Made by a program: the position numbers and the translations under genes. This document shows positions 6,962-21,603 of a stretch of DNA of 50,380 nt, piece after piece; the first letter of the stretch is position 1; each line of letters opens with the position of its first letter. The DNA is taken from positions 1 to 50,380 of the forward strand of contig BTVJ01000051.1 of assembly GCA_045863395.1 (NCBI GenBank), given 5' to 3'. The notes beneath the pieces were generated by a model, which was given only the letters and a program-made list of their open reading frames with translations, searched no databases and was not told where the DNA came from. This DNA is from Myxococcales bacterium (GTDB taxonomy: Bacteria > Myxococcota_A > UBA9042 > JABWCM01 > BTVJ01).

Positions 6962-7249
6962 CGTTACACCTCCGACGTTCCGTAGAGCGTACCGCACGGC
7001 AAGTCCTTTCGCCAGCTTGGTTTCTGGGCTGATCGTCACCTTCCCGGGGCGTGCGCTGCCCCGTCCCCGCCTCCCGCCCCCCGCCGACCGACCACCGACC
7101 GTCGCCGACGGTCCGACGTCGCCCCTTTCCGGCGCCTCCCTCCTGGCAGCGCGCGTCAACATGCTGAAACCAAAGGACATCGAGGCGCCCCTGCGCACCT
7201 GCCACGTGCGGCACGGCCCTTGCCCATGTGTCCGGCAGGAGGACACGAA

Positions 7250-7340
7250 CATGAGACTCACGACGCTGATCGAGATGGTGCAGGCGCTGACGGTGGTGGT
7301 GGCAAGCATCCTGGTGGCGGTGAGCGCGGGCCTGCTGTGA
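7250..7340 (+). CDS. candidate small hydrophobic ORF (30 aa) MRLTTLIEMVQALTVVVASILVAVSAGLL
   Basis: ATG is preceded by AGGAGG at an 8-nt spacing. It encodes a single predicted TM helix and lies in the intergenic gap between the Cys-repeat gene start and the histidine kinase gene end. No homology can be asserted. Confidence 0.25.
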
Positions 7341-7362
7341 GGTCGCCCTCCCAGCCAACCGG

Positions 7363-9081
7363 CTACGCTGGCGGCGCTCCGAAGATCTCGTCGAGGCGAG
7401 CAAGGAGCGCCTCGGCAGAGAACGGCTTGGTCAGCACCTTGGGAACCTCGCTCGGCTCCACCCCGAGCTGGAGCAGCGTCTTCCCCGCGTACCCCGAGAT
7501 CAGGATCGTCGGCACGTCCGCCCACGCCTCCCGGAGCTGCCGGAGGAGCGCCGGCCCCGGCATCCCGGGGAGGCTCACGTCGCTGACCACGAGGGACGGC
7601 GGCTCGGGGAGGGCTCTGGTCAGCGCCACTGCCTCCTCTGGGGTCGAGACGTCGATGATCGTGTATCCGGAGGCCACCAGGAGGCGCCGGACCACCATGC
7701 GCACCATCGGCTCGTCCTCCACCAACAGGACGGTGCGCCCGTGGCCGGCCCTCTGGAGTGGCGCAGGCTGCGGCTCGGGAGCATCCAGGCTCGGGACCTC
7801 GACGATGGCCGCAGTGCCCACATCCACCAGGGGCTCCAGGCGGATTGTCCCCCCCATGGACTTCACGATGCCATGGGCCGTAGACAGGCCGAGGCCTGCG
7901 CCCTCGGGAGGCGACTTGGTCGTGAAGTAGGGCTCGAAGACGCGCCGCGCGATCCCCGCGGGGACCCCGACCCCATCGTCTTGCACCCGGAGCTGTGCTC
8001 CCCCTCCCCGCCCCTCGGTGACGGAGACCCGCACGGTCCCGCCATCGTCCCCCAGCGCGTCTCGTGCGTTCATCACGAGGCTCATCACGAGCTGGTCCAG
8101 GTGACCCGGGTTCACCTCGACGAGGGGCACGCTCTCGGCCAGGGAGACCTCGAGCCTCACGCCCTCGCCCACCGCATGCTCCAGCAACGGTTGCAGCGCC
8201 CGCACCGCCCCGCTCATGTCCACGGGCATCGCCACGCCGGTGCGCTCCCGCGAGAACACCATCAGCCGCTGCACCAGCGCCCGGGCCTTGCCTGCCGCCC
8301 GAGCGGCGGCGGCCAGGTCCTCAGCGCGGGGGTCAGCGCCCTCGAGCCCCTGCCGCGCCAGGGCGATGTAGTTGATCACCGCGGAGAGCTGGTTGTTGAA
8401 GTCGTGAGCGATGCCGCCTGCCAGGCGCCCGAGGGACTCCAGGCGCTGGGCCTCGCGCAGCTCCGCCTCCAGGCGCTCCCGCTCCCGCTCGTGGCGCTGA
8501 CGCTCCAGGGCGTGCCCCAGGGTCCCCGCGATCATGGCCAGCACCGCCGTCTCGTCGGTGCGCCACGGGCGCGGCTCGCGCAGGTTGTCGAATCCCACGA
8601 AGCCGAGGAGCCGCCCGCCCAGGAGCACGGGGACGCACGTGGCGCCGCGAATCCCCTGTCGCTCCAGCTCCTGCCGCTCTGGAGACGCATCGGAGGGCAG
8701 GGCCTGCACGTCCTCGATGTGGATGCTCTCGCCCCTCTGGAGGCGACCGGTCCACCACGGGAAGGCATCCACCCGCAGGCCCTGCAGGGTGGGTCGCTCC
8801 GCCTGGACCCCTGGCGCACACCACTCGTGGGTGTTGTCCATGAGCTGCCCCCCGTCGCGCAGCATGAACAGGTAGGCGCGGTCGGCGCCGGTCAGGGCGC
8901 CTGCCAGGGCGAGCACCTCGTCGATCACCGGATCCAAGGCCTCCAAGGGCCCCGCGAACCGCTTGGCGACCCGGATGATCGTTCGCACCGTCTCGGCGCG
9001 CACGGCGTCCGTCACGCCCCTCGAGGCCGCGCTGGCCATCGGGGACCCGCACCTGTCGCAGTCCACCGCTTCCATCACCAT
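7363..9081 (-). CDS. hybrid sensor histidine kinase / response regulator with N-terminal GAF domain
   Basis: Start MVMEAVD has the RBS GGAGGTG. A GAF-like sensory region is followed by an H-box (GIAHDFNNQLSAVINYI), an HATPase_c region (N/G boxes …GAGLGLSTAHGIVKSMGGTIRLE…) and a C-terminal receiver (TVLLVEDEPMVRMVVRR…LVVSDVSLPGMPG…TKPF). Confidence 0.8.
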   Translation of the reverse strand: MVMEAVDCDRCGSPMASAASRGVTDAVRAETVRTIIRVAKRFAGPLEALDPVIDEVLALAGALTGADRAYLFMLRDGGQLMDNTHEWCAPGVQAERPTLQGLRVDAFPWWTGRLQRGESIHIEDVQALPSDASPERQELERQGIRGATCVPVLLGGRLLGFVGFDNLREPRPWRTDETAVLAMIAGTLGHALERQRHERERERLEAELREAQRLESLGRLAGGIAHDFNNQLSAVINYIALARQGLEGADPRAEDLAAAARAAGKARALVQRLMVFSRERTGVAMPVDMSGAVRALQPLLEHAVGEGVRLEVSLAESVPLVEVNPGHLDQLVMSLVMNARDALGDDGGTVRVSVTEGRGGGAQLRVQDDGVGVPAGIARRVFEPYFTTKSPPEGAGLGLSTAHGIVKSMGGTIRLEPLVDVGTAAIVEVPSLDAPEPQPAPLQRAGHGRTVLLVEDEPMVRMVVRRLLVASGYTIIDVSTPEEAVALTRALPEPPSLVVSDVSLPGMPGPALLRQLREAWADVPTILISGYAGKTLLQLGVEPSEVPKVLTKPFSAEALLARLDEIFGAPPA

Positions 9082-9142: not shown

Positions 9143-12100
9143 CTACGGCCCCTCCTCCTTGTCCGGCTCGAAGGGCCGGAAGACCTCTCGCACCGTCTGC
9201 ACGTTGGCCAGGGTCGCGCGATCCACGTGCCTGAGCGCCGCGAGGATGTCGGTCAGGCGGTTCCAGATCTCGCTCTGTCCCTTCAGGTGGTGCCCCATGG
9301 ACCGGAGCAGGGGGATGAGGGACAGCTCCACCACCTGGATCTGGCGCTCGAGCAGCTCGTGGATGGCCGGCGGCGGCATGTTCACGATCTCGACCCCGAG
9401 CTGCGCCTTGGACAGCGTGCGCAGGATCTCGTCGAGCCGCCGCAGGTAGGGTGCGAGGGCCACGCTCGGGTCGGTCCGCGGCGCCGCGCCAGCCTTGGCG
9501 ACCAGCTCCGCGGTCTTCGCGGCCGCCTCGACCTGGGCCTCGGCGACCTTGGCCGCCGCCTCTGCCTGGCGCTCTGCCACCTTCGCCGTCGCCTCTGCCT
9601 GGCGCTCGGCGGCCTCCACCTGGCGGGTCGCGGCCTCCCGCGCCGCACCTTGTATGGTCCCCGCGATGGACTCCAGGCGCTCGGACAGGAGCCCGAGCTG
9701 CCCCGTCACCCGGGTCACGGGATCGTCCTCCTTGCCCCCCATGAGGACCTGGCGCTGGAAGCCCTTCTTGATCTCCGCCCACCGCGCCGCCTGCTCGGCC
9801 GTCATCCTGCCGCGCAGCTCGGCGAGCTTCAGCAGGTTCTGCTCCGCGCCGGTGGTCAGGGTCTGCGCCTCGCCCAGGTAGTGGTCGTCGATCAGCGCCT
9901 GGAGCTCCGCCTCGTTCATGACCGGCACGACCCGCTGGGCCATCTTGTTCATGTTGCGGTAGCTGCCCTGGAGCTTGAAGGGAGGCTCCGTCCGGTACGC
10001 GTCGTCCTGTGAGGCGCTGCGGATGTACTCCAGGTTCACGCGCAGCACGACCTTTTGGATGGCCATGAGCTTCCGCACCACGCTGATCACGTCCTGGAGC
10101 TCGGCGGAGGTCCAGGAGGTGGAGAGCTCGCTGGTGGCGATCTCTTCGCCCAGGGCCATGCGCACGATGAGGCGCACGTCCTTCGGGTCCCGCGTGGTCA
10201 GCGGCGCGAGCACCTGGTTCGACGTCAGGGAGTTCTCGATGTAGCTCAGCGCGAACAGCTCCTCCTTGCCGTCGAGGATGTCGCCCAGGTTGTAGGTGTC
10301 CGCCCGGTTGGCGAGCATGTCGGGGATCTGGAACTTCTCGCCGGACTCGGTGTACGGGTTGCCGGCCATCACCACGCAGAACTTCTTGCCCCGCAGGTCG
10401 TAGGTGCGCGTCCGACCGCCCCACACGCCCTCGATCTTGCGCGTCGCGTCGCAGAGCGAGATGAACTTCTGCAGCAGCTCCGGGTTGGTGTGCTGGATGT
10501 CGTCGAGGTAGAGCATCACGTTGTTGCCCATCTCCAGGGCCAGGTTGATCTTCTCGACCTCCTGCCGCGCCGTGGCGTTGGGCGCCTCCGCCGGATCCAG
10601 CGACGTCACCGAGTGCCCGAGCGACGGGCCGTTGATCTTCATGAACACGAGGCCGAGGCGCGTCGCCACGTACTCCATGAGGGTCGTCTTGCCGTAGCCC
10701 GGGGGGGAGACCAGCAGCAACATGCCCATGAGGTCCGTGCGCTTGCCGGCCCCCGCCGCGCCGAGCTGCTTCGCCAGGTTGTCGCCGATCAGAGGCAGGT
10801 ACACCTCGTCGATCAGGCGGTTGCGGACGAAGCTGCTCATGATGCGCGGTGTGTACTCGCTGAGCCGCAGGCGGCGCCGCTGGGCCTCCAGGACCTTGTG
10901 GCGCACGGCCTGGTAGGCCCGGAACCCGGGGACCCGGACGTGACGGAACTGGAGCAGCCGTGAGAGCACCTCGTCGAGCCGCAGGCTCATGGTCCGGTTC
11001 GTGATCCGCCCGTGGTGCCCGAGGAGGCCCGTCACCTCCACCGAGGACACGACGCTCGAGGGCTCGCGGTCCAGGCGCCGCTCGGTCACCATGAGCACGA
11101 CCGCCTCCTCGACCACGTGGCGGTGCTCCGCGCGCCCCGCGTCGGCCTGGAGCCAGCCTCCCAGCCAGGCGCGCACCAGCTCCACCTGGCTCGTCGGATC
11201 TCCGTCCAGCGCGCGCAGATCGTCGAGGAGCTCCCGCAGCGCGCCGCTGCGGTCCAGATCCGTCGTGAACGCCCGCTGGAGCGCCAGCGCCTCGGCGCTC
11301 GCCACGAAGCGCTGCGGCGTCCGGGCGATCTCCTCCAGCAGGTAGGCGCCGGCGATGCGCGCGTCCTCTGGATCGATCAGCAGCTCGCGCGCCTCGAAGA
11401 AGGAGGCCACCGCCGCCGCGAGGTCCGCCTGGAGCTCACCGATGGCGGGCCCATAGGCGAAGGCCTCCCGCATGCGCACGAGGCTCCGCGCCTTCCGCTC
11501 CCAGAGCCCCCTCGCCTTCGCGTCGTCGAAGAAGGCCCAGAACAGCGCCGCATACGCTCGCGGGGCGGGTGGGAACCGCAGGAGCCCGGCCGTCTGCGAC
11601 ATGCCGTGGAGCTTCTCCAGGATGAGCGCCGCGTCCGCGTCGTGCAGGCCCCGCTCGTAGCCCTCGTCGTAGCGCTCGGCCGCCACGCGCCGCACGAGGG
11701 CGAGGAGACCCCCCTCCGCCAGGGCGGCGTCGCGCAGGTCCGCCATGGACAGCCCCTTGCCGACCTCCGCATCGAAGAGGATGCTCGTCGCCAGGTACTC
11801 GGCCCGGTAGACCTCGGGGGTCTCCGACACGAGCTGCTGGTCCCAGTACGGTCGCGTCGCCTCCAGCTCCGCGTCGCTCACCACCTCGAAGAAGTCGGTG
11901 CCGAGCAGGTGGACCGCCATGCCGTCGCCCCGGGGCAGCATGGTCAGGTCGAGGGCCTGGGTGTTGACGCTGAACCGGTGCCGCCCGAGGCGCACGAGGC
12001 TCGCGCCCTCCTCGAACAGGTCCTGGCGGTCCCGCAGGGTGCGCCCCGCCTCCTCACGGGCCGCCTTGATGCGGGACTCCACCTCGTCCGCGCGCACCGA

Positions 12101-14548
12101 GTCACCGAGCTCTCGCAGGCGCTGCGCGACGTCCCGGATCTTCGCCACCATGGGGTCGGCGGCGAAGTAGGCGTTGAGCTCGTCGCCGGTGCCAAGCTGG
12201 GCGGAGCGCCGAACGATGCCCGTCAGGATCCGGTCCGCCGCGTCCATGAGGCTCTGGGCCTTGCGCTGCCGCACCTCCATGAGCGACTGCTTCTTGGCAG
12301 CGAAGGCCTCGGTCAGCTCCTCCCGCTTGGTGGCGAGCTGCACCAGGAACTCGTCGAACTCGCTGAACCGCCCCTCCAGGTCCTCGAGCTGGAGCAGGAG
12401 CCGGCTCTGCCCCTCGTCGCACTTCTCGGGGGTGTCCGCGACGACCAGCGCGCTCTGCACGTTCTGCGACAGCAGCTTGAACTGGGCGCCGAACTCCGCG
12501 ACGCTCTCACGCCCCAAGAGCTCGCGACGCCGCGCCGCCACCACCGCCCGGGCCCGGTTCAGCGCGCCGAGCACCTCCGAGATGGCCTCCAGGATCTGCG
12601 TCCGCACCGTCGCGTCCGAGATCGCCAGGCCCCCCACCACCTCCGTGAGCAGGTCCACCTGGGACGCCACCTCGTCGATGGCCACGAGCACCGGGTCTGC
12701 GTCCGTGACCTTCTGCACGGCCTCGCCCGTCGCCAGCAGCTCGCCGATCCGCGCGTGGTACGGAGCGAGCGCCTCGTCCCGCAGCAGGAACTCCACCGCG
12801 CCACGGCTCAGAGCATCGAACCGCTCGATGACCCCCTTCTCCAGGGCGTCGATGCGGCCCACGTCCGCATAGCGCATGTCCTTCAGCGAGATCAGGTGCC
12901 CCCGCTGGCGCCGCAGCTCCGCGAGCCCGCCGACGTACCCATCGACGGTCGTCCAGTCCTCCGCCCGCAGCCGCCGCAGCAGCTCCTCCTGCTGGCGCGA
13001 CGCCGCCGCGACGGCGTCCTCCGCCGCCTTGCGGATGGCGACGACCTTCTCGAACTCATCGACGATCAGCTCGGCGGTGGCGCGGATCTCCGTCACCAGC
13101 GGCGCCAGCCCGCCGACCTCCGCGTGGGACAGCCAGTAATACTGGTCCAGGGCGCGCGTGGCCGCGGCGATCAGGTCCTCGTAGATCTGCACCGAGGGCT
13201 TCTGCTCCTCGATGGCGCGCCGCAGGGACAGGCAGTCCGAGATGCCCCGCACCAGCTCCGCGTTGCCCACCTTGGCCAGATACGAGTCTCCGACGGGAGC
13301 CTTTGCGGCAAACTCGTCGCTGGTGAAGGGGGTCTGCCACACCTGCATGGGGTGCACGCGGGTCGCCTCCGCCCCGGTGGAGCGAAAGATGACCATGAGG
13401 CCGTCCTCGAAGATGGTGTAGCCGTGGCAGAAGATGGGGGTCTGGACCTCCTTGCGGATCAGGTTGTAGCCGAGCAGCGCGAACCGCCCCTCGTCGGCCC
13501 GGTGGAACACGTAGAGCACGTCCTCCCCGTTGGGCGACCGGATGGCGCGCTTGAAGGTCATGCCGCTGACGTCCGCGTCGAAGGCCCGCGTGACGCCGGT
13601 CTGAAGCGTGTACCCGCCGGGGAAGATGATGCCGTGGTCCTCGGGCAGCGACACGCACGAGAGGCCGATGGCGTCGATGCGCTCGACCTGCCGCGTCCGC
13701 GTATTGAAGACCAGGTAGCGCCACACCTTCTCGTGGTAGGGCAGCACCTTGATCAGGATCAGCCCGCCCACCTTCGCGTACCAGATGTCGGCGTCGTCCA
13801 GGGCCTGGCGGGGGTCCTCGACGGGCTCCCTGTAGATGCCGAGCCCATCGGTGGTGTTGTCCTCCACCTTGACCGTCAGGTCGCCGCCGACGGTCTCCAC
13901 GAAGACGGTGTCGAGGATGTTGACGTGCGGGTGGCGCCCCGCCACGTGGTTCTCTCGGGTGGTCTGGGTCCACTCGAAGTCGTGGCTCGGCGGGTAGACG
14001 TCGTCCCGCTCACCGCGGTTGTCGATGTACGAGACCTTGCCCGCCGGGGAGATACTCCACCGGAAGGCCTTGGTGTCGACGATCTTGGCGCCGATCTGCA
14101 GCACGGCCAGCAGCTTCCCGTCGAGGCGCCGCGCGTGCAGCAGCTTCGCGTCCTTGTAGTACCTCGTCAGCTCGCCGAAGTCCTTCACGAAGCGCGGGTC
14201 CGCCAGGAAGTCCGCGTCGGAGGCTGGCTCCAGCGAGAATCCCTCGCCGGTTCTCCGAAACGTGTGCAGCGAGAAGACGTCCCCGACGCCGATCTCTGTG
14301 CGCAACCCCAGGAACACGTTGTACGCGAAGAGCAGGCGGTCACCGATGGCGACGATGGACCGCGGGATGCAGTTGTTCTCGGTGCGGATGCGCTCGTTGC
14401 CGACGACGGCCAGCTCCTGGCCGCCGAACAGCTCCATGCGCCGCTTGTTGAGGGCCTCGGCCTTCTCGGCCAGCGCGCGCCCCTGGGCGATCAGCCGATC
14501 ACGGATGACCTCGTAGGCGCCGCGCTCGATCTGCTGGCTCTCCGCCAT
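9143..14548 (-). CDS. giant (1801 aa) MoxR/AAA_5-class AAA+ ATPase-containing protein
   Basis: The AAA+ core sits near residues ~1235-1400. It has Walker A (LLLVSPPGYGKTTLMEY, nt ~10693-10719), Walker B (VMLYLDDIQH) and sensor/Arg elements (FCVVMAGNPY…IPDMLANRADTYNLGD). The ~1200-aa N-terminal region has no recognisable domain. Long alpha-helical/coiled-coil stretches are present (…ERQAEATAKVAERQAEAAAKVAEAQVEAAAK…). The start ATG at 14548 lies 1 nt after the flotillin stop (TGAgATG). Confidence 0.8.
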   Translation of the reverse strand: MAESQQIERGAYEVIRDRLIAQGRALAEKAEALNKRRMELFGGQELAVVGNERIRTENNCIPRSIVAIGDRLLFAYNVFLGLRTEIGVGDVFSLHTFRRTGEGFSLEPASDADFLADPRFVKDFGELTRYYKDAKLLHARRLDGKLLAVLQIGAKIVDTKAFRWSISPAGKVSYIDNRGERDDVYPPSHDFEWTQTTRENHVAGRHPHVNILDTVFVETVGGDLTVKVEDNTTDGLGIYREPVEDPRQALDDADIWYAKVGGLILIKVLPYHEKVWRYLVFNTRTRQVERIDAIGLSCVSLPEDHGIIFPGGYTLQTGVTRAFDADVSGMTFKRAIRSPNGEDVLYVFHRADEGRFALLGYNLIRKEVQTPIFCHGYTIFEDGLMVIFRSTGAEATRVHPMQVWQTPFTSDEFAAKAPVGDSYLAKVGNAELVRGISDCLSLRRAIEEQKPSVQIYEDLIAAATRALDQYYWLSHAEVGGLAPLVTEIRATAELIVDEFEKVVAIRKAAEDAVAAASRQQEELLRRLRAEDWTTVDGYVGGLAELRRQRGHLISLKDMRYADVGRIDALEKGVIERFDALSRGAVEFLLRDEALAPYHARIGELLATGEAVQKVTDADPVLVAIDEVASQVDLLTEVVGGLAISDATVRTQILEAISEVLGALNRARAVVAARRRELLGRESVAEFGAQFKLLSQNVQSALVVADTPEKCDEGQSRLLLQLEDLEGRFSEFDEFLVQLATKREELTEAFAAKKQSLMEVRQRKAQSLMDAADRILTGIVRRSAQLGTGDELNAYFAADPMVAKIRDVAQRLRELGDSVRADEVESRIKAAREEAGRTLRDRQDLFEEGASLVRLGRHRFSVNTQALDLTMLPRGDGMAVHLLGTDFFEVVSDAELEATRPYWDQQLVSETPEVYRAEYLATSILFDAEVGKGLSMADLRDAALAEGGLLALVRRVAAERYDEGYERGLHDADAALILEKLHGMSQTAGLLRFPPAPRAYAALFWAFFDDAKARGLWERKARSLVRMREAFAYGPAIGELQADLAAAVASFFEARELLIDPEDARIAGAYLLEEIARTPQRFVASAEALALQRAFTTDLDRSGALRELLDDLRALDGDPTSQVELVRAWLGGWLQADAGRAEHRHVVEEAVVLMVTERRLDREPSSVVSSVEVTGLLGHHGRITNRTMSLRLDEVLSRLLQFRHVRVPGFRAYQAVRHKVLEAQRRRLRLSEYTPRIMSSFVRNRLIDEVYLPLIGDNLAKQLGAAGAGKRTDLMGMLLLVSPPGYGKTTLMEYVATRLGLVFMKINGPSLGHSVTSLDPAEAPNATARQEVEKINLALEMGNNVMLYLDDIQHTNPELLQKFISLCDATRKIEGVWGGRTRTYDLRGKKFCVVMAGNPYTESGEKFQIPDMLANRADTYNLGDILDGKEELFALSYIENSLTSNQVLAPLTTRDPKDVRLIVRMALGEEIATSELSTSWTSAELQDVISVVRKLMAIQKVVLRVNLEYIRSASQDDAYRTEPPFKLQGSYRNMNKMAQRVVPVMNEAELQALIDDHYLGEAQTLTTGAEQNLLKLAELRGRMTAEQAARWAEIKKGFQRQVLMGGKEDDPVTRVTGQLGLLSERLESIAGTIQGAAREAATRQVEAAERQAEATAKVAERQAEAAAKVAEAQVEAAAKTAELVAKAGAAPRTDPSVALAPYLRRLDEILRTLSKAQLGVEIVNMPPPAIHELLERQIQVVELSLIPLLRSMGHHLKGQSEIWNRLTDILAALRHVDRATLANVQTVREVFRPFEPDKEEGP

Positions 14549-14549
14549 C

Positions 14550-16694
14550 TCAAGACTTCAGCGAGTCGATGCCCAGCGACCTCGCCGTCTCCAGGAGCTT
14601 CTGCAGCTTGAGCTTGCCCTGCGCGTCCGCCCGCCCCATGAGCGAGGCGATCACCGCGGAGATCGTCAGGTTCTGGATGTCCCCGGAGCCCAGCGCCGGG
14701 CGCGAGAGCACGTCCTTCAGATCTGCTGCCAGGTCGCCCTCCCCGCTCAGGTACGGCTTCAAGACCGTCTGGAGCGACTCGCTGCGCCCCACGAAGCCGT
14801 CGATGGACTTGCCCATGCTGATGGCGTTGACCATACGGTCGAAGAAGGCCCCGTCGCCGCCGACGATGTCGATCTTCGCGGACTTGAAGGCCTCGCCGAT
14901 GAGCCGCGCCTGGGCCTCCGCCACCTCGCGGCGCGCGTGGATGTGCTCCAGCTCGACCGCCTTCTCCTTGTCGAGCCGCAGCCGGAACTCCTCGTGGCCC
15001 CGCCCCGCCTCGTCGAGCGCCTTCATGGCCGCCGCCTTGCTCGCGATGCCGCTCGCCTCGGCGGCCAGCTTCTCCTTGGTGCCGACCGCCTCGGCGGTCA
15101 GCTTCTCCTTCGTGCCCACCGCCTCGGCCAGCGCCTTCTCCCGCGAGACCGTCGCCTCCGCCAGCCCCACCTTCTCCAGAGCCGCGGCCTCTGCCTCCCG
15201 CACGCGCACCCGGGCCTGGCCCTGCGCCTCCTCGCCCACCGCCGTCGCCTGCATCTTCTCTACGGTGACCCGGGCCTCTGCCATCCCCTGCTTCTCCGTG
15301 GCGATGGCGCCGGCCTCCCGCACGCGCACGTCCGCGAGCCCGGTGGCCGCCGCCTCCGCCTGGACGCCCTCGGCAAGCCGCATCTTGGCCTTGGCAAGCC
15401 GGTCGGCCGCCTCCAGCTCCGCCTCCGCGATGGTGAGCCGCTGCTTGGCCTCGTGGCGGGACGCCTGCTCGCTGGCCTCTGCGGCCTTGATGTCCTTGAC
15501 GAGCTGTTGCTGTGCCTCCCCCTCCGCCTTGATGATCGAGGCGTCCTTGTGGCGCTTGGCGTCCTCGACGAGGCGCAGCGTCTTGATGCGCTCCTCCTCC
15601 TCCGCCACGGTCTTCTCGACGGCGATGCGCTGCCGGATGACGTCCTGGATCTCCTTGCGCTCCTTCTCCAGCTCCTTCTCCTTGGAGATGCGCTGGAGCT
15701 CCACCTCCCGCTCGCGCGAGATGGCCTCCAGGTCCCGGTCCTTCTGGACGCGCTCGGTCTCCACGCCGATGACCCGCTCCCGGTTCTTGCGGGCGACCTC
15801 CACCTGGCGGGTCTTGTTCTCTTCGTTGATTGCGATCTCCTCGTCGGCCTTGATGCGCGCGTTCTCGGCCTTGAGCCGCTCCTCGGCGGCGACGCGCAGC
15901 TCCTCCGCCTTCTCGCGCGCCTTCACGGTCGCGATCTCGCGCGCCTGCTTGGACTCGGCGTCCGCCTTCTGGCGGTCCAGCTCCAGGATGGCCTCCTGCG
16001 CCTCCACGTCCTGCTTGCGGATCAGCTTCTTCTCGTTGTTCTCATACTCATTCGTGCGCACGTGCTCGATGGCCGTCAGCTCGGTGATCTTCCGGATGCC
16101 CTGCGCATCGAGGATGTTGCTCGCGTCGAGGGACGTCAGCGGCGTCTGCTCCAGGTAGTCGATGGCCGCGTCCTCCAGGACGTAGCCGTTCAGGTCGCGC
16201 CCGATGACCTCGATGATCTTGTCCTTGAAGTCGTTGCGCTGGGTGTAGAGGCCCTCGAAGTCGATGTGCTTGCCCACGGTCTTCAGCGCCTCCGAGAACT
16301 TCGCGCTGAACAGCTCCTCGATGGTCTTCTGATCGCTCGCCCGCGCGCAGCCGATGGCCTGCGCCACCTTCAGCACGTCCTCCTTCGTCTTGTTGACCCG
16401 CACGAAGAACGTGACCTTGATGTCCGCCCGGATGTTGTCCTTGCAGATCAGGCCCTCCTTGCCGCGCCGGTCGATCTCGATGGTCTTCACCGAGATGTCC
16501 ATCACCTCCGAGCGGTGGATGATCGGGTAGACCACCGCGCCCGTGAACGTGACCAGCGGCTCGGACTTCATCGTGTTGACGATGAGCGCGCGGCCCTGGT
16601 CGACCTTCTTGTAGAAGTTCAGCACGACGATGCCGGCGCCTGCGATCAGCAGGACCAGCACGCCGATGGACACGAGGACGGCATAGATGGTCAT
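14550..16694 (-). CDS. flotillin-like SPFH protein with extended coiled-coil (714 aa)
   Basis: Start MTIYAVLVSIGVLVLLIAGAGIVVL (TM) has the RBS AAGGAG 8 nt upstream. An SPFH domain is followed by a long E/A/K/R-rich heptad region (ADEEIAINEENKTRQVEVARKNRERV…), as in FloT/YqiK-type flotillins. Confidence 0.8.
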   Translation of the reverse strand: MTIYAVLVSIGVLVLLIAGAGIVVLNFYKKVDQGRALIVNTMKSEPLVTFTGAVVYPIIHRSEVMDISVKTIEIDRRGKEGLICKDNIRADIKVTFFVRVNKTKEDVLKVAQAIGCARASDQKTIEELFSAKFSEALKTVGKHIDFEGLYTQRNDFKDKIIEVIGRDLNGYVLEDAAIDYLEQTPLTSLDASNILDAQGIRKITELTAIEHVRTNEYENNEKKLIRKQDVEAQEAILELDRQKADAESKQAREIATVKAREKAEELRVAAEERLKAENARIKADEEIAINEENKTRQVEVARKNRERVIGVETERVQKDRDLEAISREREVELQRISKEKELEKERKEIQDVIRQRIAVEKTVAEEEERIKTLRLVEDAKRHKDASIIKAEGEAQQQLVKDIKAAEASEQASRHEAKQRLTIAEAELEAADRLAKAKMRLAEGVQAEAAATGLADVRVREAGAIATEKQGMAEARVTVEKMQATAVGEEAQGQARVRVREAEAAALEKVGLAEATVSREKALAEAVGTKEKLTAEAVGTKEKLAAEASGIASKAAAMKALDEAGRGHEEFRLRLDKEKAVELEHIHARREVAEAQARLIGEAFKSAKIDIVGGDGAFFDRMVNAISMGKSIDGFVGRSESLQTVLKPYLSGEGDLAADLKDVLSRPALGSGDIQNLTISAVIASLMGRADAQGKLKLQKLLETARSLGIDSLKS

Positions 16695-16743
16695 CGGTAC
16701 TCGCTCCTTTCGCGCATGGTCAGGACCGGGGATCTGGACACGC

Positions 16744-17559
16744 TCAGGGGCGCGTGTCAACCGGAATGTCCCCGTCTCCGAGGAGCTGATCGTAGGGGAC
16801 GACGTGGAAGATCCCGTGGGCGGGGTCGTAGTCGATGATCAGCGCGCGCTCGCCCCGGCCGAGCTGCTTCGCCTTGTCGGCGCTCCTCACCTGCACCAGC
16901 AGCCCCGCGCCACCGTCCGCCACCTCGGCCTGCCCGAAGTGGTCGTCCACGCGGGACGTGGAGATCACGCACACCTCGCCGATGAGCGAGCGGCTCTCGG
17001 GGCCCGCGTGGGTCACGAAGAAGCGGCGCAGCGGCTTGATGGCGAGGCGCGCGCCCGCCAGGCCCACGCCCAGCGAGGCGATGGTCACCCCCGCGCCCAC
17101 GATCAGCCTCATCAGCGCCGAGTCGCCCAGGCCCCCGAGCGCCTCCATGACCACCACCGAGGAGAGCCAGGCCAGCAGGACGACGAAGCTGAGCGAGACG
17201 GTCAGCGGCACGCCCCGGAGCCCCAGCGCGCTGAACAGGGAGGCCACCCCCTCGTGGCCGTGTCCGGCCGCCTCATGGAGCCCCTCTGCCGCGCCGTCCG
17301 CCGCGCCGTCGAGCCCGTCCACCCCGTCGAGGGCATCCAGGGAGCCGTGCCCTGCCGCGTGGGCCGCCCCGTCCACTCCCCCGAGGGCCGCCTCCGCCGC
17401 CCCATCCAACGCCCCGTCGGCGCCGTCCAGGTGCACGTCCAGGAAGTCCATGTCCAGCGCGCCCAGGACGACGAAGCCCCAGTAGATCACCACCACCCCG
17501 AGCAGGATCGTGAACACGACCGTCGGGAAGGCCAGAATGGCTGCGAGGAACTCCGTCAT
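16744..17559 (-). CDS. NfeD-like membrane protein (YqiJ/YuaF-type flotillin partner)
   Basis: N-terminal TM helices are followed by a Gly/Asp/Ala-rich linker and further TM helices. The C-terminal soluble OB-fold-like segment (GEVCVISTSRVDDHFGQAEVADGGAGLLVQVRSAD…GERALIIDYD) is typical of short NfeD proteins. It lies immediately upstream of the flotillin gene, in the canonical arrangement. Confidence 0.65.
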   Translation of the reverse strand: MTEFLAAILAFPTVVFTILLGVVVIYWGFVVLGALDMDFLDVHLDGADGALDGAAEAALGGVDGAAHAAGHGSLDALDGVDGLDGAADGAAEGLHEAAGHGHEGVASLFSALGLRGVPLTVSLSFVVLLAWLSSVVVMEALGGLGDSALMRLIVGAGVTIASLGVGLAGARLAIKPLRRFFVTHAGPESRSLIGEVCVISTSRVDDHFGQAEVADGGAGLLVQVRSADKAKQLGRGERALIIDYDPAHGIFHVVPYDQLLGDGDIPVDTRP

Positions 17560-17895
17560 CGTCCGCTCCGTGTCCGGCAGGTGCCGCCGCGGCGCCTGCT
17601 ACGAGGTGGCCACACCTGCCGCGGGGCGTGCGGATTGTAGCGTGAAGCGGGGGATGGTGGAACCTGCCAACGACGTGCGGTGCGGACCGGCACGGGGGGA
17701 CGACCGGCAGCTCGGGAGCCTGCCTGGCGAGGAGGAGGTGATCGGGTGGCCGCCGAGGCGGTGGATGCACCCCGCAGCTCGCCTCGACGACGGTCGAGCC
17801 ACCCGATCAGCCACCGGACCGCCCGGTGGAGCGAGCGCGCCCGGAACGGGCGTGCTCGGTTTCTGGTCCCTCACCAGTGGCGCACGCGAATGACG

Positions 17896-18889: not shown

Positions 18890-20095
18890 TCACCTTACCA
18901 CCACCACCCCGTTTACGTCGCCGAAGCCGCTCTCGACCCGATGCTCGACGCCCTCCGGCGCCTCGACGCGCTCGCCGTCGACCAGGAACGCAAACTCCCA
19001 CGCGCCCGGGGGGACGGGTACCGTCGCGACCCAGAGCCCGTCGGACTCGGGCTCCATGGGGGCAACGCCGGGGTCCCAGCCATTGAAGTCCCCCACCACG
19101 GACACCCTCACGGCGTGAGGGGCCCTGTGGAGGAAGCGCACGCCCCCAGGCACCACGCGAGGCGCGAGCCCCTCCGGCGGCTGGGCCGTCCCGAGGGCGA
19201 GCTCCATCCGCAGCGGCACCATGTCCGCTGTCGCGCCGCCCCAGCGGAGGCCCACCCCGGCCCCGAGCGCGTGGGAGACGAAGCGCCTGCCTGCGTCGCC
19301 CGCGTCGTTGACGGCCAGATCCCATCGCGCCCACACCGTGAGCCACTCCGTCGTGGCGACCTCTGCCTCCAGGCGGTTTCCGTGCAGGAGCTCTGGCGCG
19401 TCGGTCCCTTCGAAGGTGCGCGCGTAGAGGAGGTACAGCTCACGAACGCGGACCCGCGCATGGGGGCTCAACACCGCGCCCACCAGCAGCCGGTGCCCGA
19501 ACAGATCGTACCCATCGACGTCGGCCTCCCGGGGCCCGACCTGGTAGCCCGCCAGGAACGCCAGCCATGGCGCCACGCTCTGGAAGAGCTGCATGCGTGG
19601 CAGGTGAGAGACCTCCTGGCGCACCGGGGACGCGTCCATCCAGGTCCGCGCGTGGGCCCTGTAGGCGATCTCCACCTCGCCGCTCCCCCACGCCGCGGCC
19701 AGCGCGGCCTCTCCAAACCCCGCGGCCGCGTGCCCCCCCAGCCCCTCCGTTGCCCACTGGTGGTCGAAGCCGGCGGTCACCTCGACGCGAAGCCAGTCGG
19801 TGGCCCACCAGTGGAGACCCACGTCGCCGGCATGGACGGCGACGGCACCGCGCGCCGCGTCGAGGTAGCCTCGCAGCGTCCCGGTCCAATCCGCGGCGAT
19901 GCGCAGGCCCGGCGCGACCACGACCGTGAGCCCCGCAGACGGAGCGACCTCCAGGTACCCATCCGCGGTGGGGTCATCCGCATCGTAGAGCACGTTGCTC
20001 TCCCAGCCGGAGCCAACCTCCAGGCCGAGGCCCCCGCGAATGGGCGCAGCGTGCGCGGAGGACAGGGCGCCGACCAGCGCGATGACGGAGGGCAT
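18890..20095 (-). CDS. secreted protein with C-terminal CBM48/AMPK-beta-like glycan-binding domain
   Basis: Candidate start MPSVIALVGALSSAHAAP carries a signal peptide. The central region is beta-rich. The C-terminus (VRVSVVGDFNGWDPGVAPMEPESDGLWVATVPVPPGAWEFAFLVDGERVEAPEG) matches the AMPK1_CBM / CBM48 consensus (GSFNNW…YKFxVDGxW). The GTG alternative at 20164 cannot be excluded. Confidence 0.55.
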   Translation of the reverse strand: MPSVIALVGALSSAHAAPIRGGLGLEVGSGWESNVLYDADDPTADGYLEVAPSAGLTVVVAPGLRIAADWTGTLRGYLDAARGAVAVHAGDVGLHWWATDWLRVEVTAGFDHQWATEGLGGHAAAGFGEAALAAAWGSGEVEIAYRAHARTWMDASPVRQEVSHLPRMQLFQSVAPWLAFLAGYQVGPREADVDGYDLFGHRLLVGAVLSPHARVRVRELYLLYARTFEGTDAPELLHGNRLEAEVATTEWLTVWARWDLAVNDAGDAGRRFVSHALGAGVGLRWGGATADMVPLRMELALGTAQPPEGLAPRVVPGGVRFLHRAPHAVRVSVVGDFNGWDPGVAPMEPESDGLWVATVPVPPGAWEFAFLVDGERVEAPEGVEHRVESGFGDVNGVVVVR

Positions 20096-20178
20096 GCAGC
20101 GATAGGGGGACAGCCGAGCCTCCGGAGACGTTCCGACCTGGTGGCGGGGGCTGCTCAGAGCCACCCGCTCACTAGATG

Positions 20179-20889
20179 TCAGAGATCCGTCAACTGGGCC
20201 AGCTCAATCAAGGCGTTTCGGTTGCCGAAGCCGTCGTCGCGGTAGCGACCGGCCAGCGGATCCGGCACGAAGCGCTGGCCATCGACCACGAACACGTACT
20301 CGTGCGTGCCCGACGGGATGCGCAACGTCGCGGTGAAGGCGGCGGCGCTCTCGGCGCGCGACATCGGGGCGGGCTCCCAGCCGTTGAAGTCGCCGGCGAC
20401 CGCGACGGTGCTCGCGTCGGGGGCGGCGTAGACGAAGCGGACCAGCACGGCGTCGTCGCAGGCCGGGTGCGCCGCAGGTTCCGTCGCGGTGGGCCCAGCG
20501 GCGACCGCCCCGGACTCCCCGCCCGCCGTCGGAGCGTCCTGCGGGGGCGCTGCCGCCCCACGCCCGAGCGCATAGCCGAGGGCGAGGAGCAGGCCGGCGG
20601 CCAGCGCCCAGGTCGGGGCCGGGAGCTCCAGGCGACGCCCGAACCACCGCGCCACCCGGCGCCACCCGCGTGCCTCCCGCTGCGCGAGCCGGGCCATGAC
20701 CGCGTCGTGCAGCGCGCCTGGCGCCCGCAGCGTCGCCAGCACGGCCAGGTCCTCGGTCAGTGCCTGCTCCGCCACGATGCGCGCGCCGAGAGCGGGGTCT
20801 TGGGCAGCGCGCCGCTCCAACACGGCGCGCTCGGCCTCCGTCAGCTCGCCGCTGATCAGTCGCTCGATGAGCAGCTCGTCACGGTCCAT
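20179..20889 (-). CDS. anti-sigma factor (single-pass) with C-terminal CBM48/AMPK-beta-like domain
   Basis: The N-terminal anti-sigma-like helix (LISGELTEAERAVLERR) is followed by a TM helix (WALAAGLLLALGYAL) and a periplasmic CBM48-like domain (VAVAGDFNGWEPAPMSR…THEYVFVVDGQRFVPDP). The start overlaps the sigma gene stop by 11 nt. RBS GGAGGT. Confidence 0.65.
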   Translation of the reverse strand: MDRDELLIERLISGELTEAERAVLERRAAQDPALGARIVAEQALTEDLAVLATLRAPGALHDAVMARLAQREARGWRRVARWFGRRLELPAPTWALAAGLLLALGYALGRGAAAPPQDAPTAGGESGAVAAGPTATEPAAHPACDDAVLVRFVYAAPDASTVAVAGDFNGWEPAPMSRAESAAAFTATLRIPSGTHEYVFVVDGQRFVPDPLAGRYRDDGFGNRNALIELAQLTDL

Positions 20890-21499
20890 GGTACCTCCGT
20901 CGCGTCTCGCTGGCCTCCGCGGCCTCCAGCGTCAGGCGAAGCTGCTCACGGGCGCGCACCACGCGGATCTTCAACGTGGTGATGGGCAGGCCCGTGATCG
21001 TGTGCATCTCCTCGTAGCTCAACCCCTCCACGCACTTCATGAGGAGGGGCTCCCGGTAGTCGTCCCGCAGCTCAGCGACGGCCGCCCTGACACGGTCCAG
21101 GTGCTGCGTCCGCTCCAGGGTGTGGTCTGGGCGATCCGCAGGGTCGCCCGCCACCTCGTCGTCGGGCGGCGGCTCCCCCGGGTGCCTGTGCCTCCCCTCC
21201 ACGCGCTTCCGCTTGAAGTGATCCTTGCACAGGTTCACGAGGATGCGAAGGAGCCAGGGCCTGACGGGGAGCGCCGAGTCGAAGCGGCCAAGCGAGCCCA
21301 GGAAGCGGATGAGGGCCTCCTGCACGAGCTCGCTCGCCACCTCCTCGGACCCCGTGTAGTACACGGCGAACCGATACAGCGCGTCCTGGTGGGCACGAAC
21401 CAGACGGGAAAACGCCGCGGTGTCGCCGCGCTGGGCGGCCTCGATCAGCTCTTGTTCCAACGTCCCTCGGGGCGAACGGCACACGCCGACTATGCTCAT
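20879..21499 (-). CDS. ECF-type RNA polymerase sigma factor
   Basis: Sigma-70 region 2 (AAFSRLVRAHQDALYRFAVYYTG…ELVQEALIRFL) and region 4 (EPLLMKCVEGLSYEEMHTITGLPITTLKIRVVRAREQL) are present. ATG at 21499 gives start MSIVGVCRSP. The upstream part of the listed ORF is likely non-coding. Confidence 0.8.
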   Translation of the reverse strand: MSIVGVCRSPRGTLEQELIEAAQRGDTAAFSRLVRAHQDALYRFAVYYTGSEEVASELVQEALIRFLGSLGRFDSALPVRPWLLRILVNLCKDHFKRKRVEGRHRHPGEPPPDDEVAGDPADRPDHTLERTQHLDRVRAAVAELRDDYREPLLMKCVEGLSYEEMHTITGLPITTLKIRVVRAREQLRLTLEAAEASETRRRYHGP

Positions 21500-21603
21500 C
21501 TTACGACGCCCGAACGCCAAGGATACGACGGCGCGACGGGAGCGCGCGGGTAGCGGCGAGCGCCCTGGCTCTGGTACGCTCACCGCCAACGACGGAGGGA
21601 CCG

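Follow-up and report, generated by a model that had tools for sequence, protein, structure and literature searches.

A YqiJ-like, flotillin and giant AAA+ ATPase gene trio from a Myxococcales bacterium as a further member of a conserved, barely characterised operon class

The window analysed here is a 50,380 nt stretch of a Myxococcales genome (contig BTVJ01000051.1, positions 1 to 50,380) that encodes three successive ORFs on its minus strand: a 271 aa YqiJ/NfeD-like membrane protein (17559..16744), a 714 aa YqiK-type flotillin (16694..14550) and an 1801 aa soluble AAA+ ATPase of the DUF3686 family (14548..9143). All features described below lie on this strand. The three genes constitute a single conserved unit, and the trio is a further member of a previously described, barely characterised system. 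A preliminary description of the locus placed the three genes and the ATPase motifs at positions that are confirmed here, but its statement that the arrangement corresponds to no nameable system does not hold, as the class appears in a comparative genomics study of PSP systems (2024, PMC11237479) and has a P. aeruginosa member, bacABCDEF (PMC10948618).

Conservation and organisation of the trio

The linkage between the ATPase and the flotillin was surveyed in 80 genome loci, 77 of which had enough upstream sequence to test it. All 77 carry a flotillin gene upstream of the ATPase gene on the same strand, within 1 kb in 76 cases and at 6.3 kb in the remaining one (L031), and these upstream ORFs match the window flotillin with E-values of 1e-170 to 1e-268. 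A YqiJ-like gene precedes the flotillin in 70 of the 80 loci, which span Myxococcota, Actinomycetota, Gammaproteobacteria, Acidobacteriota and Planctomycetota. The opposite pattern, homologues of the ATPase occurring mostly apart from flotillin and NfeD genes, had been named beforehand as evidence against a unit and was not found across these phyla, at least five in number. In a reciprocal search that started from the flotillin, the ATPase lies downstream in 63 of 70 metagenome loci (61 directly, two at ~2.1 kb) and the YqiJ-like gene upstream in 64. The other seven, about 10% of the close flotillin relatives, have no adjacent ATPase, and therefore the flotillin can function without it.

Most loci carry the abbreviated trio, as 66 of the 80 genome loci are without PspA; genes for PspA, DUF2170 and phospholipase D are likewise missing near the trio in the window. 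The gammaproteobacterial form embeds the trio in a longer operon that also contains DUF2170, PspA, rhomboid and phospholipase D genes: DUF2170 and PspA_IM30 lie upstream in 14 gammaproteobacterial loci, while a rhomboid gene and a PLDc_2 gene each lie downstream of the trio in nine loci. On plasmid pQBR103 the trio is joined to PspA, rhomboid and glutathionylspermidine-synthase-type genes.

Within the window the genes are closely spaced. The YqiJ-like gene is separated from the flotillin gene by 49 nt (16695..16743), and the flotillin ATG from which the 714 aa length is counted follows an AAAGGAG ribosome-binding site 8 nt ahead of it. The stop codon of the flotillin and the start codon of the ATPase together form the sequence TGAgATG (14546..14552) with a spacer of 1 nt, so that both junctions are as the preliminary description had read them; the latter arrangement is consistent with translational coupling from flotillin to ATPase. 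Among the 68 related loci scored for this junction, all with the flotillin gene immediately 5' of the ATPase gene on the same strand, the two genes overlap by 1–8 nt in 14, with 4 nt overlaps being frequent, and are spaced by at most 13 nt in 30. The 336 nt intergenic region 5' of the operon (17560..17895) is presumed to be its promoter region. It includes a GC-rich hairpin immediately 3' of the stop codon of the upstream gene (17832-17858) and a TACAAT sequence (17634-17639) ~75 nt ahead of the ATG of the YqiJ-like gene, which is itself preceded by GGAG at 7 nt, and it contains no match to a sigma-70 or sigma-54 consensus.

The distribution of the ATPase across phyla is patchy and copies are carried on megaplasmids, which suggests horizontal transfer and would suit an anti-phage or conflict system, with the trio sensing infection at the membrane and triggering membrane-level abortive infection. 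Large NTPase/beta-propeller fusions are common in conflict systems. The P. aeruginosa genes PA3728-PA3732 are induced in all phage-infected samples of a study with two lytic phages (PMC12041424), and among Pseudomonas species paFlo3 has a patchy distribution (PMC13086221). Such induction is, however, expected of a phage-shock or envelope-stress regulon, and the ATPase retains 52–60% identity over ~1800 aa between phyla with a single uniform architecture, unlike fast-diversifying immune sensors. PADLOC returned no significant match (the best, to IetA with E = 0.005, spans 29 residues at the P-loop), defence-type neighbours are not recurrent, no phage-borne copies were found and the core trio is without an obvious toxic effector. 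The conflict or defence option of the preliminary description has gained no positive evidence, as no known defence family matches the trio, and is considered improbable.

The flotillin and the YqiJ-like protein

In the flotillin (14550..16694), an N-terminal anchor of hydrophobic residues (aa 6-24) precedes an SPFH/Band_7 domain (aa 30-213), and a long coiled coil rich in Glu and Ala leads to a C-terminal region. The full-length protein has no Pfam match, and Band_7 is only recognised in a separate scan of aa 1-260 (37.1 bits; cut-off 23.6). The protein is clearly homologous to E. coli YqiK, which an alignment of the family matches with an hhalign probability of 99.9% (E = 5.7e-32). The ATPase-linked flotillins constitute a tight subfamily of ~700 aa proteins that share 49–68% identity across phyla but only ~29% with YqiK. 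P. aeruginosa BacD (PA3729 or PaFlo3), with 56% identity over 642 aa, is the orthologue of the window protein.

The 271 aa protein (16744..17559) has three hydrophobic segments in a hydropathy scan (aa 7-25, ~111-137 and ~149-170), a variable linker that is acidic and rich in Gly, His and Asp, and an OB-like domain at its C-terminus. Its earlier designation as NfeD-like is upheld only by these segments and by a profile-profile match of its family alignment to E. coli YqiJ (hhalign probability 93.5%, E = 2.4e-7), whereas neither Pfam nor NCBIfam yields an NfeD match, and the profile matches B. subtilis YuaF (2K14) only marginally (E ~1). P. aeruginosa BacC (PA3730), at 30% identity (E = 3e-27), is the orthologue of this protein. 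The trio thus has hydrophobic segments in two of its members, three in the YqiJ-like protein and one in the flotillin, and none were found in the ATPase by hydropathy scan.

The DUF3686 ATPase

The ATPase (9143..14548) has more than 6274 homologues, and its 52% identity over 1639 aa to P. aeruginosa BacE (PA3728) identifies it as the orthologue of that protein. Its N-terminal ~1200 residues had been thought to hold no recognisable domain, but Pfam detects both DUF3686 (PF12458, E = 2.9e-207) at aa 26-471 (13136..14473) and DUF7902 (E = 2.4e-27) at aa 592-676 (12521-12775). DUF3686 is N-terminal in every full-length relative (1590–2036 aa). An AlphaFold2 model of the ATPase (pLDDT 84), of the kind that the preliminary description had proposed, resolves defined domains: in the DUF3686 region an N-terminal helix (aa 11-41) precedes a beta-propeller of ~28 strands (aa 47-405), followed by a long helical stalk or bundle (aa 423-843; 12020..13282) that includes DUF7902, and then by a small beta domain (aa 852-890) and a helical domain (aa 915-1154; together 11087..11995). 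In a Foldseek comparison the propeller region only matched generic beta-propellers at E ~1e-4, namely the clathrin heavy-chain terminal domain and linker, Vps18 and Elp1. The small beta domain carries the near-invariant motif GRHRFSVNTQ (aa 855-864), in which G855, H857, R858, F859, V861, N862, T863 and Q864 are invariant columns.

The AAA+ module including its lid domain occupies aa 1240-1513 (10010..10831). It comprises Walker A SPPGYGKTT (aa 1281-1289; 10682-10708), Walker B LYLDDIQH (aa 1346-1353; 10490-10513), a pre-sensor-1 beta-hairpin (aa 1371-1385), the sensor-1 strand VVMAGNPY (aa 1392-1399; 10352-10375) and LANRADT (aa 1412-1418; 10295-10315), which contains a candidate arginine finger. 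Walker B reads DD in place of DE across the whole family, and because of this the ATPase could be a slow switch and not a motor. The module is followed by a conserved post-lid helical extension (aa 1530-1603, including QGSYRNMNK) and a C-terminal tail (aa 1610-1801; together 9146..9961). The supposed C-terminal coiled coil of ~350 aa therefore needs to be redrawn: aa 1429-1603 are conserved lid and extension, and only aa ~1610-1801 are variable Ala/Glu-rich long helices, of low confidence by per-block pLDDT, with conservation falling beyond ~aa 1610.

Database names point to DNA repair, since the Pfam text of PF12458 reads "ATPase involved in DNA repair" and NCBI homologues are named "DNA repair ATPase"; weak RuvB_N and RuvB matches at the P-loop and the presence of RecJ two genes downstream in P. 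aeruginosa are in line with these names. The resemblance to RuvB does not extend beyond the generic AAA+ core, however, and at 21 bits is far from the curated cut-off of 282, the Pfam scan detected no protease, nuclease or DNA-binding domain, and the literature searched contained no mention of DUF3686. Moreover, the conserved partners are membrane proteins, and RecJ is not a conserved neighbour in other loci. The label is disfavoured as unsupported, and a role in DNA repair is barely credible.

The AAA+ fold is nearest to NorQ and CbbQ, with ClpA, ClpB and dynein only about one Z unit below, and the Pfam AAA_5 match barely exceeds its cut-off. After sensor 1 the MoxR family, which includes NorQ/NorD, CbbQ/CbbO and RavA/ViaA, has the pattern NP.E.EG.Y.LPEA.LDRF, and the window sequence NPY..E.G..F.IPD.LANRA resembles it. 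The window ATPase is nevertheless six to seven times larger, owing to a 1240 aa N-terminal propeller, stalk and helical region, it has the DD Walker B, and while characterised members use a VWA partner, no VWA gene recurred near the ATPase in the neighbourhood survey. As NorQ and CbbQ remodel specific client enzymes, it is conceivable that the flotillin/YqiJ cage serves as a platform on which the ATPase acts on gathered membrane proteins or lipid-modifying enzymes, and not on flotillin. It would then be a chaperone or quality-control machine directed at clients, much as FtsH works within the HflK/C cage or as MoxR ATPases bring particular complexes to maturity. Beta-propellers typically bind substrates or adaptors, the trio can be accompanied in Gammaproteobacteria by genes for a rhomboid protease and a phospholipase D, and S. 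aureus FloA-NfeD is reported to stabilise unfolded proteins (PMC11222466). Beyond Gammaproteobacteria, however, there is no conserved client gene, the universal partners being flotillin and the YqiJ-like protein only, and neither a VWA adaptor nor a protease domain was found in the ATPase, which makes client remodelling rather unlikely.

The neighbouring histidine kinase

A 572 aa hybrid histidine kinase with the Pfam domain order GAF-HisKA-HATPase_c-REC is encoded at 7363..9081, outside the span 9143-17559 of the trio. It starts at ATG 9081 behind a GGAGG sequence, 61 nt 3' of the ATPase gene; the terminator scan found no terminator-like site between the two genes, and their co-transcription in the window organism is possible. 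These features, together with the preservation of the arrangement in an 82%-identical relative, would fit a four-gene signalling unit, in which the kinase either detects the signal governing the ATPase and flotillin or is itself under their control. Against such a unit, the kinase is absent downstream of the ATPase in a 71%-identical relative of the same lineage, directly follows the ATPase in none of the 80 genome loci (only five have kinase-like ORFs at other positions) and is matched in only two of 80 metagenome loci. The CBM48 genes upstream are also syntenic in the closest relative, so the placement of the kinase looks like ordinary local synteny. The earlier view of a kinase in cis is accurate as to strand and distance, but the linkage is lineage-specific; the kinase is judged to be a neighbour and not a component of the conserved module, and a four-gene unit is very improbable.

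Related systems

The closest counterpart of the trio is the P. aeruginosa bacABCDEF operon or 'biofilm-associated cluster' (PA3732-PA3727, PA14_16140-16200; Mace 2008; Wallart 2024, PMC10948618). The locus encodes, in order, DUF2170, PspA, a 213 aa protein, a 688 aa protein, the 1746 aa DUF3686 ATPase and PLDc_2, followed by YaeQ, RecJ and LasB. According to PMC10948618, bacA to bacF are co-transcribed, and loss of bacA raises BacB to BacF 6- to 13-fold. Published work on the cluster deals with bacA and bacB, and the passages of PMC10948618 consulted contain no account of the domains of BacE, whether as AAA, ATPase, SPFH or NfeD; the assignment of BacE as the DUF3686 ATPase is made in the present analysis. 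Deletion of bacD (paFlo3) in P. aeruginosa PA14 lowers biofilm by ~20% with no stress phenotype (PMC13086221). The window trio has the same order on a single strand and aligns with BacC, BacD and BacE, but lacks bacA, bacB, bacF and a sigma-54-like site, and has a histidine kinase gene after the ATPase instead. Given that PspA, DUF2170 and phospholipase D genes are missing nearby and that no sigma-54-like site is present, regulation in the window organism differs from that in P. aeruginosa.

The operon class in PMC11237479 has a matching component list and architecture, and the window trio corresponds to its "abbreviated operons", which consist of flotillin, a YqiJ/YuaF protein and sometimes an ATPase. 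That account is short and in silico, without linkage numbers, and differs from the present sample, in which rhomboid and phospholipase D genes occur equally often. The two-gene flotillin operons yqiJ-yqiK of E. coli and yuaF-floT (yuaG) of B. subtilis likewise have a gene for a YqiJ-like protein with three TM segments and an OB domain followed by that of a YqiK-type flotillin, but in E. coli yqiK is followed by sibD/ibsD and not by an ATPase.

HflK/C-FtsH, in which an SPFH assembly is paired with an AAA+ ATPase, provides a working analogy for cooperation between cage and ATPase, although FtsH is a membrane-anchored classic-clade AAA protease whereas the window ATPase is soluble, MoxR-like and without a protease domain, and the sequence relationship is limited to the SPFH and AAA+ folds. 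The resemblance to Vps4/ESCRT-III and PspA/Vipp1, where an AAA+ ATPase recycles a membrane-bound polymer, is a functional analogy only. It is linked to the gammaproteobacterial versions by the co-encoded PspA, a member of the ESCRT-III superfamily, but Vps4 belongs to another AAA+ clade, no MIT domain was found in the window ATPase and the window has no PspA gene.

Proposed function

The most economical reading of the trio is a membrane-associated, ATP-driven role, as the preliminary description had suggested. It is on balance somewhat probable that the trio is an envelope-stress module in which the soluble MoxR-like ATPase acts on the flotillin assembly. The YqiJ/NfeD-like protein with its three TM segments and the YqiK-type flotillin would form an SPFH cage or microdomain at the cytoplasmic face of the inner membrane, and the 1801 aa protein would assemble into a MoxR-like AAA+ ring. 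We infer this oligomeric state, a physical contact in which the beta-propeller and the long helical stalk dock on the flotillin assembly, and the choice of that assembly rather than its clients as the substrate. ATP hydrolysis may then serve to put together, open or take apart the flotillin assembly and, where one is co-encoded, a PspA/ESCRT-III-like polymer may be acted on as well. Overall, this would give the cell control over the contents of the flotillin assembly during membrane damage.

Organisation of the YqiJ-flotillin-ATPase operon

The YqiJ/NfeD-like small membrane protein (271 aa; 17559..16744, minus strand), the YqiK-type flotillin (714 aa from an ATG behind an AAAGGAG site; 16694..14550, minus strand) and the AAA+ ATPase (1801 aa; 14548..9143, minus strand) are encoded by ORFs that follow one another in this order on one strand of the window, which has a G+C content of about 70%; the same order is found in Pseudomonas aeruginosa. 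The 49 nt between the small-protein and flotillin genes and the TGAgATG junction of the flotillin and ATPase genes were both confirmed on the sequence. Hydropathy analysis gives three hydrophobic segments in the small protein, one in the flotillin and none in the ATPase, which is identical to a database protein of 'MAG: Myxococcales bacterium AMXMBFR64'. Neither a sigma-70 consensus site for the operon nor a terminator between its genes was found. A 12-bp GC-rich hairpin at 17832-17858, terminator-like on the plus strand, directly follows the stop of the upstream gene for a 284-aa secreted protein. The upstream transcription unit probably ends here, in which case the promoter region of the operon itself starts at this point.

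Conservation of the gene linkage

With one genome scanned per species, relatives of the ATPase turned up in at least 566 species, and the six-frame ORFs of the best 80 loci were searched with the window proteins. These 80 loci belong to Myxococcota, Actinomycetota, Gammaproteobacteria, Acidobacteriota and Planctomycetota, together with one Clostridia-labelled MAG. The preliminary description had singled out co-occurrence of the ATPase with SPFH/NfeD genes beyond Myxococcota as a point to check, and it holds in at least five phyla, with a flotillin gene upstream on the same strand in all 77 testable loci among the best 80; in the other three the contig ends less than 100 nt from the ATPase start. 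In 76 of the 77 loci less than 1 kb separates the end of the flotillin gene from the start of the ATPase gene, mechanical ORF calling giving values from a 77-nt overlap to a 968-nt gap; in the remaining one (locus L031) the distance is 6.3 kb. Overlaps of 1-8 nt between the two genes are common among the best 80 loci. A YqiJ-like gene is located upstream of the flotillin gene in 70/80 loci, about half of the rest being cut by a contig end.

The reverse test started from the flotillin in metagenomes, where 70 loci had downstream sequence. The ATPase is encoded directly downstream in 61 of these, about 2.1 kb away in two, and is absent in seven. Five metagenome loci (L096, L108, L154, L158 and L163) encode flotillins 51-62% identical to the ATPase-linked one and have about 8 kb of downstream sequence without an ATPase gene, so members of the flotillin subfamily can occur where the ATPase is missing. 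The linkage is nevertheless real and is conserved more strongly than was visible from the sequence alone.

Copies of the ATPase are also carried by megaplasmids of Pseudomonas, Streptomyces, Deinococcus and Hymenobacter and occur in Proteus, Vibrio and Photobacterium. Phage records contained none, and IMG/VR gave only remote AAA matches. The top match among those listed (L001, CAZQBW010000056.1; ATPase 59% identical) includes the whole trio and comes from a MAG labelled 'uncultured Clostridia bacterium', which could be due to mis-binning of the contig or to recent transfer.

The flotillin and the small membrane protein

The flotillin begins with a hydrophobic anchor (aa 6-24) that is followed by a Band_7 domain (aa 30-213), which reaches 37.1 bits against a cut-off of 23.6 when the first 260 aa are scanned alone with Pfam. 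The profile of a 29-sequence family alignment (A7) aligns with E. coli YqiK over 406 columns (hhalign 99.9%, E=5.7e-32), extending beyond the SPFH domain to include the coiled coil. The C-terminal 454 aa have no Pfam match to the Flot domain, even at E up to 10, and a PDB sequence search with the flotillin returned nothing, its profile retrieving only QmcA (E=0.011). Among the 29 full-length members of the subfamily, 26 have no Pfam match of any kind and three match Band_7, and the precomputed Pfam entry of the flotillin homologue in the closest relative (L082, 82% identical; 5888-7999) is likewise '-'. The long Glu/Ala-rich coiled coil probably triggers the HMMER bias filter on full-length flotillins, so that automated annotation will miss those of the ATPase-linked subfamily.

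The small protein combines a multi-pass N-terminus and a C-terminal OB-like domain with a gene that adjoins a flotillin gene, as in the NfeD/YqiJ family. The profile of its own family aligns with E. coli YqiJ (hhalign 93.5%, E=2.4e-7) over TM2, TM3 and the C-terminal domain, and grazes the OB domain of YuaF (2K14) at an E of about 1. The Pfam NfeD/YqiJ models do not match the window protein; among 34 of its relatives three graze YqiJ_N (E=0.015) and one NfeD (E=0.021). NCBIfam yields no match to the small protein and likewise assigns no family to the flotillin or the ATPase.

Domain architecture of the ATPase

The N-terminal region of the ATPase had been described as lacking any recognisable domain, which is not the case: Pfam assigns DUF3686 to aa 26-471 (E=2.9e-207) and DUF7902 to aa 592-676. 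The DUF3686 propeller domain comprises only about 775 clusters at 50% identity and is always N-terminal in full-length proteins of 1590-2036 aa. AlphaFold2 was run on two pieces of the protein, aa 1-1200 and aa 1101-1801, with 42-sequence alignments. The first piece (pLDDT 84) is predicted to consist of a helix (11-41), a beta-propeller (47-405), long helices (423-843), a small beta domain (852-890) that includes the near-invariant motif GRHRFSVNTQ, and a helical domain (915-1154). The second (pLDDT 75) is predicted to form the AAA+ core, with a beta-hairpin (aa 1371-1385) ahead of the sensor-1 strand, followed by a lid, a conserved helical extension and a low-confidence, variable helical tail rich in Ala and Glu. 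Foldseek searches with the N-terminal model returned generic propellers only, at E of about 1e-4, some of them propeller-plus-solenoid proteins, clathrin heavy chain and Vps18 among them. A protocoatomer/clathrin-like reading of the propeller and helices was dropped except as a remark: clathrin heavy chain, Vps18 and Elp1 were matched weakly (E about 1e-4, TM at most 0.36) and alongside generic propellers.

The AAA+ motifs quoted in the preliminary description are borne out, with Walker A (aa 1281-1289), Walker B (aa 1346-1353), sensor 1 (aa 1392-1399) and a candidate arginine finger (aa 1412-1418) all present in the core. The Walker B motif reads LYLDDIQH (window 10490-10513, minus strand), with Asp-Asp instead of the usual AAA+ Asp-Glu, and both Asp residues are invariant across 15-105 aligned homologues, so that members of the family may be slow ATPases or may work as a switch. 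In Pfam the ATPase scores 30.8 bits with AAA versus 24.2 bits with AAA_5, both weak, a PDB sequence search gave only P-loop-level AAA matches, and RuvB and NorQ rank equally as structural relatives of the AAA+ module in Foldseek; the label 'MoxR-like' is reasonable, if not exclusive. The scanned subset of recurrent neighbour clusters contains no VWA-domain partner gene; it comprises the operon-adjacent DUF2170, PspA, rhomboid and PLDc_2 clusters and, at variable distance and orientation, a Ser/Thr kinase, a LysR regulator and an ion channel.

NCBI and UniRef name the family (homologues P0001-P0390) 'DNA repair ATPase', which apparently traces to the description of Pfam PF12458. No DNA-binding or nuclease domain was found in the ATPase with Pfam, RuvB models reach 21 bits versus a cut-off of 282, and DNA-repair genes are not among the conserved neighbours, which encode membrane proteins. 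Literature searches found no paper mentioning DUF3686, none on a flotillin together with a 'DNA repair ATPase' and none on YqiJ/YqiK with an ATPase. The DNA-repair reading was rejected as being without support from sequence, fold or gene neighbourhood, and the widespread database name is thereby shown to be unsupported.

Relationship to the Pseudomonas aeruginosa bac operon

The P. aeruginosa locus encodes, in order, DUF2170, PspA, a 213 aa protein, a 688 aa protein, the ATPase homologue (1746 aa, an entry with 3222 member sequences), PLDc_2, YaeQ, RecJ and LasB. With recJ and lasB, which we take to be PA3725 and PA3724, this gene order identifies the ATPase as PA3728, that is BacE of the bacABCDEF operon. 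The window proteins are 30% identical to the small protein BacC, 56% to the flotillin BacD and 52% to BacE. The myxobacterial locus is thus now tied to the bac operon, and BacE is identified as a DUF3686 ATPase. The six genes bacA-bacF are co-transcribed, with a sigma-54 promoter proposed; BacB to BacF increase 6- to 13-fold when bacA is mutated, and mutants in bacA or bacB show defects in biofilm formation, rhamnolipid production, swarming and virulence (PMC10948618). Deletion of bacD (paFlo3) causes a biofilm loss of only about 20% (PMC13086221). The 17 genes whose induction was common to every phage-infected sample include PA3728-PA3732 (PMC12041424), and mutations in PA3728 recur among isolates from cystic fibrosis (PMC8190622).

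The full-length P. aeruginosa form has the DUF2170-PspA pair upstream and a phospholipase D (HKD) gene downstream, whereas in the window PspA, DUF2170 and phospholipase D genes are all absent near the trio, a histidine kinase gene taking the downstream position. The window operon has no sigma-54-like site (TGGCAC-N5-TTGC) upstream of the kind proposed for bacA, and window-wide matches to this motif are fewer than in shuffled sequence; a promoter of this type was therefore dropped.

Flanking-ORF clustering of the best 80 loci placed DUF2170 and PspA_IM30 genes upstream of the trio in 14 gammaproteobacterial loci and a PLDc_2 gene downstream in nine, with a rhomboid gene equally frequent in this sample (nine loci). 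The rhomboid gene directly follows the ATPase gene in eight gammaproteobacterial loci, L033, L041, L042, L047, L050, L055, L057 and L074 (at about 15.2-15.9 kb), often overlapping the ATPase stop; the copy in L068 is on the opposite strand, upstream of the operon (5113-5661). The trio without PspA is the commoner form (66/80 genomes), and the module therefore probably works alone or with PspA encoded elsewhere in the genome. A comparative genomics study of PspA-based membrane-stress systems describes the operon class of the trio, including abbreviated operons that consist of a flotillin, a YqiJ/YuaF protein and sometimes the ATPase (PMC11237479). As the DUF2170-PspA pair is missing upstream, the window trio is the abbreviated, PspA-less form of this published class, orthologous to bacCDE, and not a new kind of system; the earlier view that it corresponds to no system that can be named no longer stands, bacABCDEF being the P. 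aeruginosa member. The P. fluorescens SBW25 megaplasmid pQBR103 (L081; NC_009444.1 85452-104335) carries the trio with genes for PspA, rhomboid, DUF2491, DUF350, DUF1190 and a glutathionylspermidine-synthase-family protein, a string that merges two PspA operon classes described separately in the same study (PMC11237479).

The histidine kinase and other neighbouring genes

A GAF-HisKA-HATPase_c-REC kinase gene (Pfam; start 9081, minus strand) follows the ATPase gene. It is indeed present 61 nt downstream on the same strand, as had been noted, but it is not part of the conserved unit. Only the 82%-identical relative has the kinase behind the ATPase gene, and there synteny extends to the upstream CBM48 genes; the 71%-identical relative lacks the kinase at this position, and in the best 80 genome loci it is never adjacent. 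Its candidacy as a system component was rejected on the neighbourhood data of the genomes, the two close relatives and the metagenome loci. The 61-nt gap contains no terminator-like site, so read-through into the kinase gene could occur in this organism.

Upstream of the trio lie the genes for the secreted 284-aa protein, CBM48 proteins and an ECF sigma/anti-sigma pair. The string at 18890-21589 (minus strand), syntenic in the closest relative (L082), encodes an ECF-type sigma factor (Sigma70_r2/r4_2), a 236-aa protein that has a C-terminal AMPK1_CBM/CBM48 domain and sits in the anti-sigma position, and a 424-aa CBM48 protein. The gene at 21604-26832 on the plus strand specifies a protein of 1742 aa, in which ten putative metal-binding motifs of the MopE type (E=2.5e-77) are accompanied by thrombospondin type 3 repeats and one FG-GAP-like repeat. 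A large secreted-looking protein encoded at 4310-7525 (minus strand) combines, unusually for a bacterium, at least seven Cys-rich CTDC repeats of the Dictyostelium type (E=1e-54) with a C-type lectin domain at its C-terminus (E=5e-15).

A possible ATP-driven step in flotillin function

The evidence points to the membrane rather than to DNA as the site of action, because the universal partners of the ATPase are two membrane proteins, with PspA, a rhomboid protease and a phospholipase D-type enzyme as optional ones, and because the P. aeruginosa operon behaves like a phage-shock/envelope-stress regulon. A role of the module in the envelope-stress response is on balance favoured, and flotillin itself as the substrate is held with less confidence. 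The soluble ATPase would oligomerise via its MoxR-like AAA+ module, its propeller and stalk would reach the flotillin/YqiJ assembly, and ATP would be used to assemble, open or recycle that assembly. By analogy with Vps4 and ESCRT-III, it is tentatively suggested that the DUF3686 ATPase could be dedicated to the ATP-driven remodelling of cages formed by flotillin (SPFH), with propeller and stalk gripping the cage. The main rival explanation, in which the flotillin platform holds clients and these are what the ATPase acts on, is considered unlikely. A role of the trio in defence is improbable: PADLOC 2.0 gave no significant match, the ATPase hitting only IetA (E=0.0047, 29 residues at the P-loop) and the flotillin and YqiJ-like protein nothing, and defence fits poorly with the 52-60% identity that the ATPase retains between phyla in one fixed architecture.

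The role of bacterial flotillins is unsettled, and single deletions usually show weak phenotypes. The near-constant genetic pairing of the flotillin subfamily described here with a large and highly conserved AAA+ ATPase opens flotillin function to concrete experiments, through point mutants of the ATPase, in vitro remodelling assays and a structure of the complex, and a possible effect of the ATPase on the flotillin is worth testing. If the remodelling proposal is true, the DUF3686 ATPase would be the first regulator of flotillin assemblies known to depend on energy, and bacteria under membrane damage would actively cycle between assembling and releasing microdomains.
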